Notes under the pieces: generated by a model
Told to the model about the DNA's origin: nothing
Seen by the model: only the letters and a program-made list of their open reading frames with translations
Database searches by the model: none
Part shown: positions 1 to 17,603 of the stretch, piece by piece
How positions within the stretch are numbered: the first letter of the stretch is position 1
Layout of the letters: each line of letters opens with the position of its first letter
Translations under genes and position numbers: made by a program
Sequence record: MG766218.1
Reading direction: 5' to 3' (one strand)
Source: Staphylococcus phage vB_SauP_phiAGO1.3
Length of the DNA: 17,603 bases

Positions 1-317
1 AAATATAATTAGGGAAAAAGTTAGTATAAATTTACACCTCCCCACCGTTTAAAATAAACGATTATAAAAATCAAAACTTATAAATTCACTTATCATTTCT
101 TTACTAAACGATTATAAAAATCAAAACTTATAAATTCACTTATCATTTCTTTACTAAACGATTATACAAATCAAAACTTATAAATTCACTTATCATTTCT
201 AAACTAAACTTATAAAAAACTGTTCAACAACTTAACTAACTTATCTAACCTATTACATATTCATCAAATACAAAATTTATACATCTATTGACTTTTATCA
301 AAAGTTATGATTGGAAC
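1..317. repeat. Left inverted terminal repeat (ITR) of a linear protein-primed phage genome
   Basis: The reverse complement of the last ~266 nt of the window matches nt 1-317. Positions 1-105 are identical except for one mismatch at position 9 (left ..ATAATTAGGG vs right ..ATAAATAGGG). The inner ~110 bp is about 85% identical with a 1-bp indel. Homology ends at ..GTTATGATTGGAAC (317). Confidence 0.85.
56..205. repeat. Tandem 50-bp direct repeats inside the left ITR: two identical copies and one variant copy
   Basis: The unit AAACGATTATAAAAATCAAAACTTATAAATTCACTTATCATTTCTTTACT occurs at 56-105 and 106-155. Copy 156-205 is a variant (ATACAAA; ..TTTCTAAACT). Confidence 0.9.
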
Positions 318-382
318 ATAAAATCTAATTTCTTCTATTAAATAGTAGTTTTAAATTATTTAAACTTTTTTAAGAAAAACTT

Positions 383-412
383 TTGACAAAACTTTTAAAC
401 GTTTGCTATACT
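383..412 (+). promoter_or_regulatory. Early sigma-A-type promoter: TTGACA, 18-bp spacer, TG-extended -10 TGcTATACT
   Basis: TTGACA at 383-388 and TGCTATACT at 404-412. It lies about 30 nt upstream of the AGGAGGT Shine-Dalgarno (431-437) of the first + strand ORF. Confidence 0.7.
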
Positions 413-444: not shown

Positions 445-747
445 ATGGTTAATGTTGATAATGCACCTGTAGAAAAAGGTCAAGCATATACTGAAATGTT
501 GCAACTATTCAATAAACTTATTCAATGGAATCCAGCTTATACATTTGACAATGCTATTAATTTAGTATCGGCTTGCCAACAACTATTATTAAACTATAAT
601 AGTTCTGTTGTTCAATTCTTAAATGATGAACTAAACAACGAAACTAAACCAGAATCTATTTTATCTTACATTGCTGGTGATGACTCAATAGAACAATGGA
701 ATATGCACAAAGGATTTTATGAAATGTATAACGTTTACGTTTTTTAG
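445..747 (+). CDS. Early protein of unknown function (100 aa)
   Basis: ATG at 445 preceded by AGGAGGT with 7-nt spacing. It is the first gene downstream of the early promoter. No recognisable motif. Confidence 0.7.
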   Translation: MVNVDNAPVEKGQAYTEMLQLFNKLIQWNPAYTFDNAINLVSACQQLLLNYNSSVVQFLNDELNNETKPESILSYIAGDDSIEQWNMHKGFYEMYNVYVF

Positions 748-15463: not shown

Positions 15464-16690
15464 TTATTCTGTTGCTTCTTCCTCTGGCTTTGGTGTTACT
15501 TCTTGGTCAGTAATTAAGATTTTATTAAAGAATGGGCTAATAGCCTTAAATGAATAGTAATGAATCCAGTGTGTAACTTCGTCAAATTCTCCATTATAGA
15601 ATGGTTGTTTTAACATACCCTTTGTATAGCGTTTGTATTTAATTGCATTAATATCTATGATAAACGCATATAAATCTGATTTTGGTTTAATTTCTTCAAT
15701 ATTACCAGTAAACTCTTTAAGTTTAGAAACATCGTAAGTAAATACTGCACCAACTGGAATTGTGTCTTCAATTTGTGACTGATAATCCCCGTAAGCACGT
15801 AAAAAGTCAATTGATTCTTGGTTCTGTAACTTAAACTCTTTCGTTACTTTATACACACCACCTAAATCGTCAAAACTTATAACGTGGTCTGTAAAATCAA
15901 TTCCAGCAATCTGGAAAGTATTCGCAATTTTTGTATCTAAAAGATAAGATTTTAATGAATCTGTTGTTAAAATTACAATATCTTTTAGTTTAGATACAGT
16001 TGTATATTGTCCAATTGCACCACCTGAGGCACGATGAACCTCATTATATTTAGCACTGTTGTTTTGTAAGTTTAAAATTGCCTCAAAAACTTTACTTGCT
16101 AAATCTTCTTTAGATGTTGTTTTACGTACATTTGTATCAGATAATTGATTCAATGAATAATCAACTAACATTGCACGCATTTCTTTTTCTTCTAATACAT
16201 TAATATCAGAAATTTTCTTTTTATATACACCTAAAGCATAATTAGTTGCGTCTGCTAATGTTTGGAAATTGAAACGTGTATCATTATTGTTTAATGTGAA
16301 TTTTTGTTTCTTAACAATACCACTACCATATAACTTAGTAGCCATACGTGGATAGTTACGTTTTAACATTAACTCTTCGTTTTTAGATAAATCCATGTTG
16401 ATTGGAACAGTATCCATAATTACATATTCTTCACTATATTGACCAATAAAGTCTTGTTCTTTAGCTAACCAATTAAAACGATTACCTAAGGCGATATCGA
16501 TTAATAATGTCTCATTAATCTTAGGGAATAAATATTTATTTACAAATGTTTCAAACATTGTATTTGAATTATCCCATTTGTCTCCAAATGTCCAAGATTT
16601 TGAATAATCATGATTAAAATCTTGCAATGCAGATTTTGCAGAATTTGCTACTAAAAGGGCAGTTTCATTTTTTTTACTCGCTTGTGGCAT
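15464..16690 (-). CDS. Major capsid protein, 408 aa
   Basis: Its size and position (third gene of the late operon, just before the portal) match the phi29 gp8 / P68 major head protein. RBS GGAGGAATAATAAATT. Confidence 0.75.
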   Translation of the reverse strand: MPQASKKNETALLVANSAKSALQDFNHDYSKSWTFGDKWDNSNTMFETFVNKYLFPKINETLLIDIALGNRFNWLAKEQDFIGQYSEEYVIMDTVPINMDLSKNEELMLKRNYPRMATKLYGSGIVKKQKFTLNNNDTRFNFQTLADATNYALGVYKKKISDINVLEEKEMRAMLVDYSLNQLSDTNVRKTTSKEDLASKVFEAILNLQNNSAKYNEVHRASGGAIGQYTTVSKLKDIVILTTDSLKSYLLDTKIANTFQIAGIDFTDHVISFDDLGGVYKVTKEFKLQNQESIDFLRAYGDYQSQIEDTIPVGAVFTYDVSKLKEFTGNIEEIKPKSDLYAFIIDINAIKYKRYTKGMLKQPFYNGEFDEVTHWIHYYSFKAISPFFNKILITDQEVTPKPEEEATE

Positions 16691-16891: not shown

Positions 16892-17263
16892 CTAATCTAA
16901 ATCTAACTTATCTACTAATTCTTCATCAGAATAGTCTTTATCTTCTTTATCTGCTTCTGTAACATCTGGTTGTGTTGGTTGTACTTGTTGTGGTTGTTGC
17001 ATTTGTGAAGATAAAAAAGTAGTCACTTGTTGTTCTAATGAAGTAATACGTTGCTCTAATACAACAGGGTCAAATTTCGAACTATCTTCATCTGTTATAG
17101 TAGGTTCTAATTTGTTTTCGTTTTCTTCTTCGATTGTTTCTACTGTTTTATCTTCAGTTGATTCTTCAGTTGATTCTTCAGTTAATTCTTCAGTTGATTC
17201 TTCAGTTGATTCTTCTGTTGATTCTTTATCGTCTGGTTTTACGATTTCATCAAATTCTGTCAT
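16892..17263 (-). CDS. Highly acidic repeat protein (123 aa), a candidate scaffolding or inner-core protein
   Basis: It is the first gene after the right-end promoter, with RBS GGAGGTG. It carries about six ESTE tetrapeptide repeats followed by a Gln-rich predicted coiled coil (LEQRITSLEQQVTTFLSSQMQQ) and has a very low pI. Its position relative to the capsid gene resembles phi29 gp7. Confidence 0.55.
   Translation of the reverse strand: MTEFDEIVKPDDKESTEESTEESTEELTEESTEESTEDKTVETIEEENENKLEPTITDEDSSKFDPVVLEQRITSLEQQVTTFLSSQMQQPQQVQPTQPDVTEADKEDKDYSDEELVDKLDLD
17156..17227 (-). repeat. Six tandem 12-bp in-frame repeats (AGTTGATTCTTC) encoding ESTE units
   Basis: Read directly from the sequence. 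One unit carries AGTTAATTCTTC (encoding ELTE) and the last unit is degenerate. Confidence 0.85.
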
Positions 17264-17291: not shown

Positions 17292-17321
17292 ATTATATCA
17301 TAGAATATTTAAATAAGTAAA
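17292..17321 (-). promoter_or_regulatory. Right-end late/structural operon promoter on the - strand: TTTACT, 18-bp spacer, TG-extended -10 TGATATAAT
   Basis: The -10 is the reverse complement of 17292-17300 (ATTATATCA) and the -35 the reverse complement of 17316-17321 (AGTAAA). It lies about 25 nt upstream of the GGAGGTG RBS of the first - strand gene. Confidence 0.6.
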
Positions 17322-17337
17322 TTAATTTTATTATTTT

Positions 17338-17603
17338 GTTCAAATCATAACTTTGAATAAAAGTCAATAGATACCTAAATTTTGTATTTGATGAATATGT
17401 TATAGGTTTGATAAGTTGGTAAAGTTGGTGAACAGTTTTTATAAGTTTAGTTTAGAAATGATAAGTGAATTTATAAGTTTTGATTTGTATAATCGTTTAG
17501 TAAAGAAATGATAAGTGAATTTATAAGTTTTGATTTTTATAATCGTTTATTTTAAACGGTGGGGAGGTGTAAATTTATACTAACTTTTTCCCTATTTATA
17601 TTT
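17338..17603. repeat. Right inverted terminal repeat (ITR)
   Basis: This is the reverse complement of the left end. It is 51 bp shorter because it carries one fewer 50-bp repeat copy and has a 1-bp indel. Confidence 0.85.
17449..17548. repeat. Tandem 50-bp direct repeats inside the right ITR: two copies, one perfect and one variant
   Basis: These are reverse complements of the left-end unit. Only one perfect copy plus the variant copy are present, so the ITRs differ in length. Confidence 0.9.

Follow-up and report, generated by a model that had tools for sequence, protein, structure and literature searches.

A promoter-type element without an in-register -10 hexamer at the inner edge of both inverted terminal repeats of Staphylococcus phage vB_SauP_phiAGO1.3

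Background

Both inverted terminal repeats (ITRs) of Staphylococcus phage vB_SauP_phiAGO1.3 carry at their inner edge a short element that faces into the genome, and what really calls for explanation at this locus is the strong constraint on a promoter frame that has no -10. The window analysed here (MG766218.1, 17,603 bp) is the complete linear genome of the phage, a 44AHJD/P68/66-like S. aureus podovirus (Rosenblumvirus, Rountreeviridae). For phage therapy against S. aureus, P68, 44AHJD, 66 and related phages count among the leading candidates. Both transcription units of these 20-gene phages begin just inside the ITRs, making the element an obvious first target for expression timing; in engineering it bears on minimal ITR design and on the avoidance of unwanted promoter activity. 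In the searchable literature we found neither a description of the element nor a transcription-start, footprint, reporter or transcriptome study for phages of the genus; what the PSK paper terms "promoters" are repeat motifs that MEME identified in the ITR.

Results and discussion

Genome ends

The left end is matched at 80-99% identity by 70 phage records, all from Staphylococcus phages. The gene arms are convergent, the left arm being read rightwards up to the DNA polymerase while the right arm is read leftwards and codes for capsid, collar, tail and lysis proteins. The ITRs are roughly 270-320 bp long and are as follows:

1..321, plus strand: left ITR, almost identical to the right end over 1-213 and about 88-89% identical over 214-321
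17334..17603, minus strand: right ITR, with one 50-nt tandem unit fewer than the left

The two ends are unequal in length by one unit because the copy number of a 50-nt tandem repeat, TAAACGATTATAAAAATCAAAACTTATAAATTCACTTATCATTTCTTTAC, differs between them, with 3.3 copies on the left (55-218) and 2.2 on the right (17445-17554). A short motif, ACTTAT, recurs all through the inner ITR. The termini differ at one base, position 9 versus 17595 (AAATATAATTAGGG versus AAATATAAATAGGG; AAATATAATAGGG in SA46-CL1), a mismatch that may bear on the register of sliding-back initiation or reflect a sequencing issue at the ends. Comparison of the ITRs with Rfam covariance models gave no match at E<=1, whether to a phi29-type pRNA or to another RNA family.

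ITR lengths in the databases are unreliable because several public records have adapter-like starts or truncated ends. Adapter-like sequence precedes the true terminus in MK936475 (SA03-CTH2; 1-43, …GATGCTCTTCCGATCT) and at the right end of MZ152915 (1-26, …GACGGCATACGA…), and one or both ends are truncated in the records of P68, 44AHJD, SCH1, Portland MN098325 and ASUmrsa123.

An inward-facing element at the inner edge of both ITRs

An earlier note on this DNA had described an inward-facing TTGACT/TATGAT element at the inner edge of both ITRs, and the sequence is exactly as placed there. Its parts, with the right copy read on the minus strand, are the following:

283..317, plus strand: left copy within the limits of the earlier note, ATCTATTGACTTTTATCAAAAGTTATGATTGGAAC
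284..298, plus strand: left invariant core, TCTATTGACTTTTAT, which includes the -35-type hexamer TTGACT (288-293)
306..309, plus strand: TATG, corresponding to the Gram-positive -16 motif TRTG and in register for a 17-nt spacer
306-311, plus strand: TATGAT, whose first four bases are this TATG
311..316, plus strand: left -10 slot, TTGGAA, 17 nt after TTGACT and not a -10
319..324, plus strand: TAAAAT, a consensus-type -10 hexamer, 25 nt from TTGACT and thus 8 bp out of register, at the boundary between ITR and unique DNA
17338..17372, minus strand (17372-17338): right copy, ATCTATTGACTTTTATTCAAAGTTATGATTTGAAC
17371-17357, minus strand: right core, with TTGACT at 17367-17362
17349-17344, minus strand: right TATGAT, with TATG at 17349-17346
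17344-17339, minus strand: right -10 slot, TTTGAA, empty

TTGACT and TATGAT are 12 nt apart in both copies. A genome-wide search for the full pattern gave these two sites alone, with 0 matches expected by chance. A third copy, as expected for a regulon, was not found in the genome, the match at 15800-15815 having 3 mismatches and being at chance level. Homology between the ends stops a few bases past the element, with 9 mismatches in the next 18 positions. The inner ITR, put at about 85% conservation in the earlier note, measures 88-89% identity between the arms, a close value. The element had also been said to stand out against a diverging background, and within the genome this does not hold: 3 of its 35 positions are mismatched between the arms versus 8 of 68 in the preceding inner ITR (Fisher p=0.75).

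Conservation among relatives

An alignment of the ITRs of related phages, which had been proposed as a check on conservation, gave a different resolution. It covers both ends of 20-odd relatives, anchored on the element, with 33 distinct ITR ends used for column diversity and 32 distinct ends for the register counts of TG, TRTG and the -10 slot. The 15-mer TCTATTGACTTTTAT has a column diversity of 0.012 as compared to an ITR mean of 0.203, ca. 17-fold below an average column of the inner ITR; it is the least variable of 124 inner-ITR windows, and 0 of 20,000 column shuffles reached its value. Across the 33 ends, these figures point to a clear constraint on the 5' half of the element, where the earlier claim of constraint is borne out, and to a lesser one on the 3' half. 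TATGAT is only moderately conserved, with a mean column diversity of 0.086 (0.12, 0.12, 0, 0.06, 0.22 and 0 from first to last base). Taken along its length, the element consists of the 15 invariant positions, then AAA, also invariant, flanked by two hypervariable bases on its 5' side and one on its 3' side, and lastly TTATGATT, which is moderately conserved and after which the sequence is variable; the spacer is almost constant in length while its sequence varies.

TTGACT itself is invariant in 29 of the 32 distinct ends, the exceptions being TTTACT in two (CSA13 left and SAP-2 right) and a 1-nt deletion in one (GRCS right). At the right end of ESa4 the base that directly precedes the 15-mer is changed, and in PSK the upstream ITR sequence is different with the core kept. 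In SAP-2, LSA2366, SA03-CTH2 and SA30-CTH2, the right end departs from the left inside the element (TATGTTCAC…). All of these phages are closely related, with polymerases that are 90-97% identical; in the search for a bigger, unbiased sample, IMG/VR held the same RefSeq genomes and metagenome scans added one contig only. Outside the genus, the element was not found in plasmids, and other phages gave chance-level matches only.

The core corresponds to a sigma-A -35 region

A viral contig collection scanned for the exact 15-mer TCTATTGACTTTTAT yielded 94 distinct unrelated occurrences. A -10 hexamer matching at >=5/6 positions lies at exactly 17 nt in 27 of the 94, as compared to 0-4 for every other spacing from 8 to 26, an enrichment that many TTGACT-containing 15-mers would give in similar form and that indicates the usual identity of the sequence, not its role here. 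In the Kayvirus phiIPLA-RODI (NC_028765, about 141141-141190), gp211 is preceded by a canonical promoter, TTGACT-17-TAATAT, the -35 region of which is ATCTATTGACTTTTAT, a 16-mer that matches the ITR core exactly. Within the genus, the left main promoter of several relatives (see below) has TCTATTGAC in common with the element, as its -35 context. By every comparison available, namely the contig scan, the Kayvirus promoter and the TCTATTGAC context, the core is a sigma-A -35 region, and the earlier reading of TTGACT as a -35 was sound in that it behaves as a genuine -35-type sequence.

TATGAT lies in the -16 frame and the -10 is missing

In the primary transcriptome of S. aureus, the promoter consists of a -35 TTKMAA, a -16 TNTK/TRTG and a -10 TAWAAT, with a spacer of 17+-1 nt and a transcription start site 7 nt after the -10 (PMC5797083). 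At both ends of the genome, the element has a hexamer close to TTGACA/TTKMAA (288-293; 17367-17362) and a TRTG at -16, but no TAWAAT 16-18 nt after the -35, where TTGGAA, TTTGAA and similar sequences are found instead. It is thus like an S. aureus or other Gram-positive sigma-A promoter (PMC5797083) in its -35-type hexamer with typical flanks, in its TRTG distance and in facing genes, and unlike one in that the in-register -10 is missing in all 32 ends, the nearest TAWAAT of the element being 25 nt from the -35.

The frame can be compared directly with that of canonical promoters. Among 27 canonical controls, TATGT or TATGA often immediately precedes the -10, and several controls have the form TTGACT-(12 nt)-TATGA-TATAAT, to which the ITR element corresponds as TTGACT-(12 nt)-TATGA-TTKGAA. 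TG is present at -15/-14 in 11 of these 27 controls and TRTG in 7 of 27, versus 5 and 1 of 67 non-promoter occurrences; in the same frame, the ITRs have TG in 31 and TRTG in 30 of the 32 distinct ends. Natural variants of the TATGA frame are TATGT and TGTGA, both still TRTG, and CATGA. The best-conserved bases of TATGAT are T3 and G4 and not A2, as a -10 would need: A2 is lost at both ends of Simurgh/Huma (TGTGAT, TGTTAT), and the left end of LSA2366 has CATGAT, all of them changes that harm a -10 while the TG is retained except in TGTTAT. On these grounds TATGAT is not to be taken as a -10. The earlier note had rightly doubted that a 12-bp spacing could join a canonical sigma-A -35/-10 pair; what does not stand is the spacing itself as an anomaly, 12 bp being the ordinary distance from -35 to TRTG. 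Since TATG sits in the -16 TRTG frame of a 17-nt spacer, the unusual feature is the missing -10 and not the 12-bp spacing.

The -10 slot (311-316; 17344-17339) has A2 together with T6 in 0 of the 32 distinct ends, and its columns are variable. When all ends were scanned systematically on both strands, the TTGACT of the element had no conserved -10 at a distance of 16-18 nt. TAWAAT at the 25-nt offset is present in many, though not all, of the ends of relatives, and removal of 8 bp, TTTGAACW, would yield a consensus promoter, TTGACT-17(TATGA)-TAWAAT. Outward or other promoters were considered and rejected, a TTATYM-17/18-TAWAAT arrangement occurring in 7 of 17 right ends and a minus-strand candidate in 5 of 15 left ends, neither of them conserved.

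Main promoters downstream of the element

Each arm has a proper sigma-A promoter in the unique DNA beyond the ITR:

383..412, plus strand: left main sigma-A promoter, TTGACA-18-TGcTATACT, an 11/12 match with TG, ahead of the ORF at 445-747
17292..17321, minus strand (17321-17292): right main sigma-A promoter, TTTACT-18-TATGaTATAAT, ahead of the ORF at 17263-16892
324..372, plus strand: left non-coding block, …TCTAATTTCTTCTATTAAATAGTAGTTTTAAATTATTTAAACTTTTTTA, A/T-rich, between the ITR and the left main promoter and invariant in 15 distinct left ends

The left main promoter starts 95 bp and the right one 46 bp downstream of the TTGACT of the element. Both are more conserved than the element and occur in every lineage, including those that are devoid of it; the right one is nearly invariant (region diversity 0.065). 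The right main promoter has TATGA in common with the element, and both main promoters differ from it in having a proper 18-nt spacer followed by TATACT or TATAAT. The block at 324-372 probably serves the left main promoter as its UP-element region, and the core of the block, TTTCTATTAAATA, is common to Andhravirus (about 150-190 in Pontiff) despite a polymerase identity of 67%. An A/U-only hairpin plus a T-run is also contained in this block.

Two relatives have tandem duplications of a 34-nt unit in which the UP-like tract is joined to the TTGACA of their left main promoter, with three copies in ESa4 (255-360) and two in S24-1 (262-335), and in both phages only the last copy has a -10. As ESa4 and S24-1 carry these extra units, -35-only modules recur in the genus.

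The product of the ORF at 445-747 (plus strand), the first "early" gene of the left arm, is homologous to gp1, the tail tip protein of the Andhra virion (E=2e-32 against PDB 8ej5 chain B), and is annotated as hypothetical in the records; both terminal transcription units therefore start with virion-associated genes. In the first right-arm protein (ORF 17263-16892), a 12-nt and 36-nt tandem repeat (17126-17226, minus strand) encodes an acidic (S/L)TEE repeat, the copy number of which varies among relatives.

Lineages without the element

SA46-CL1, a complete genome with ITRs of ca. 217 nt, has no element at either end and has only the terminal ca. 55-60 nt of the ITR in common with vB_SauP_phiAGO1.3. 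SA03-CTH2 and SA30-CTH2 are mosaics in which the element occurs at the structural-gene end only. Two alternative inner-ITR types thus exist in the genus, and SA03-CTH2 and SA30-CTH2, with one type at each end, have ITRs that shrink for this reason to about 80 nt. The core is also absent from the Andhraviruses, whose polymerase is 67% identical. Because SA46-CL1-type relatives are viable without it, the element is read from these comparisons as an accessory module and not as a part of the core origin.

A role in the replication origin, as had been suggested, is unlikely where the core origin is concerned. Such an origin would have a fixed terminal position and be present in every replicating relative, while the element lies 288 nt from the terminus on the left versus 237 nt on the right, owing to the number of 50-nt repeats, is at other distances in other phages, and is lacking in the SA46-CL1 type. 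The core origin more likely corresponds to the terminal ca. 55 nt, the sole part of the ITR that is common to all lineages. An adenovirus ITR combines a core origin with auxiliary host-factor sites that stimulate initiation. The ITRs described here are similar in that their terminal core is conserved throughout, while the inner part is specific to the lineage and carries a host-factor-type site; they differ in that the inner ITR is replaced wholesale in SA46-CL1-type phages.

Possible role of the element

Given its architecture and register, its pattern of conservation and its absence from some viable relatives, the reading that we tentatively favour is that of a module for recognition by sigma-A/polymerase, acting in regulation or as a weak promoter. 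The module would comprise the invariant -35 region TCTATTGACTTTTAT, a spacer of constant length that ends in TRTG and a degenerate -10 slot. Sigma regions 4 and 3 would dock the host polymerase on the -35 and the TG, and without a -10 the complex would open poorly or not at all, so that the site would be either a weak or conditional promoter or a place where polymerase docks non-productively. In both cases it might modulate the real terminal promoters, which lie 46 bp downstream at the structural-gene end and 95 bp at the polymerase end. Its footprint at the structural-gene end would border on the UP/-35 region of the main promoter there, and occlusion or cooperative loading is conceivable; since the promoter distances are 46 versus 95 bp, a single geometry-dependent mechanism cannot serve both ends. 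A host factor as the reader of the element fits with the finding that no gene co-occurs with it and that no DNA-binding domain is seen in the small ORFs. Invariance beyond the contacts of sigma region 4, with TCTA upstream and TTTAT followed by AAA downstream, would also fit another DNA-binding protein, and the fact that SA46-CL1-type phages manage without the element counts against a polymerase module.

A more specific version, in which the -35 and TRTG form a selected, non-productive docking site for the host RNA polymerase with the -10 deliberately absent, is considered unlikely. If true, polymerase would be held by the site at either end of the genome, with the possible effect of occluding or feeding the neighbouring terminal promoters or of coupling the transcription machinery to the protein-primed origins, and the site would be a class of cis-element new for terminal-protein phages. 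We know of no established function for a docking site without a -10 in protein-primed phages.

Two alternatives call for a different reader. The same bases might be an operator, at the same site on both ends, for a non-polymerase protein such as a small early phage protein or a host regulator, for example as one component of a nucleoprotein complex at the termini through which the terminal promoters are controlled, as by p6 and p4 in phi29. This is somewhat unlikely, even though invariant blocks split by hypervariable positions at constant spacing are a typical protein contact map, the invariance reaches outside the -35 hexamer, the window copy contains a partial dyad (ACTTTT-ATC-AAAAGT), six small ORFs are of no known function and the control of terminal-region promoters by phi29 p6 provides a precedent (PMC11476376). 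The dyad is not maintained in relatives, where compensatory changes were not seen and where, in the degenerate and variable right arm, G304 varies to A, T or C opposite an invariant C292, which led us to reject a dyad-symmetric operator. The small ORFs, compared with Pfam, PHROG and PDB, gave no AsiA/MotA-like or sigma-like match and have no HTH, RHH or other DNA-binding domain, nor a solved homologue with one; in the co-occurrence test only the physically linked first ORF differs between phages with and without the element, no third site exists in the genome, and an operator leaves the coincidence of a TG in register unexplained. A hairpin or cruciform was rejected as well, the best folds differing between the copies (-0.4 to -2.9 kcal/mol, z-scores 0.2 to -2.2), as were by-eye likenesses to CodY, DnaA, LexA, Fur and sigma-B/H/ECF sites, in which the matching bases fall at variable positions or the second half-site is missing. 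T4 middle promoters depend on sigma appropriation by AsiA/MotA and have their MotA box about 12 bp ahead of the -10. The element resembles them in that some 12 bp separate an upstream box from a -10-like hexamer, most ends retain both hexamers as well as the 12 nt between them, and uncharacterised small early proteins exist; yet a true TTGACT-12-TATGAT promoter for a phage-remodelled polymerase is most improbable. Appropriation systems normally replace the -35, and here the upstream box is a perfect sigma-A -35 without modification. The "-10" does not have the conservation pattern of one, for which A-11 and T-7 are the key positions, its A2 being less conserved than T3 and G4 and lost at both Simurgh/Huma ends, and the left end of LSA2366 has the CATGAT given above. 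No AsiA/MotA-like or sigma-like domain was detected in the ORFs examined, and the TRTG in register covers the same bases without a new mechanism.

An auxiliary origin element that stimulates protein-primed initiation would be expected at both ends, and the element is indeed inside each ITR at its inner boundary, the two origins being the only sites that need identical cis-elements. Such a role is nevertheless very unlikely in view of the varying distance from the terminus, the replication of SA46-CL1-type phages without the element, its presence at a single end in SA03-CTH2 and SA30-CTH2, and the restriction of what all lineages and Andhravirus have in common to the terminal ca. 55 nt. The element could finally be a non-functional relic, i.e. 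an ancestral terminal promoter split by an insertion of ca. 8 bp between TRTG and TAWAAT and carried along by ITR homogenisation over the short divergence time of the genus. The consensus promoter restored by removing TTTGAACW, the dispensability of the element in some lineages and the close kinship of the phages would all agree with such an origin, but the low variability of the core, matched by none of the shuffles, its retention beside unrelated upstream sequence in PSK and a TG kept in 31 of 32 ends amid freely varying neighbours make a relic quite unlikely.

The recognition module that we favour has a partial counterpart in phi29, where the early promoter C2, controlled by the p6 nucleoprotein complex, is likewise an inward-facing polymerase-recognition site, a few hundred bp from the end of a linear genome primed by a terminal protein and upstream of end-proximal genes (PMC11476376). 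The difference is that phi29 has 6-bp ITRs, so that C2 is present at one end only, and that C2 is a complete promoter; no homologue of phi29 p6 or p4 was detected among the phage ORFs examined. The element is best filed as a promoter-type cis-element without a -10 that is duplicated in the ITRs, and not as a new category.

Sequences at the corresponding edge in Andhraviruses can be added here. Their ITRs (ca. 143 nt; 120-143 in Pontiff) end with …GGATTATGAATGAGAAA, which resembles …AGTTATGATTGGAAC at the ITR edge of Rosenblumvirus, and at their right end TTATGA occupies the -35 position of the adjoining TATGTTATAAT promoter.
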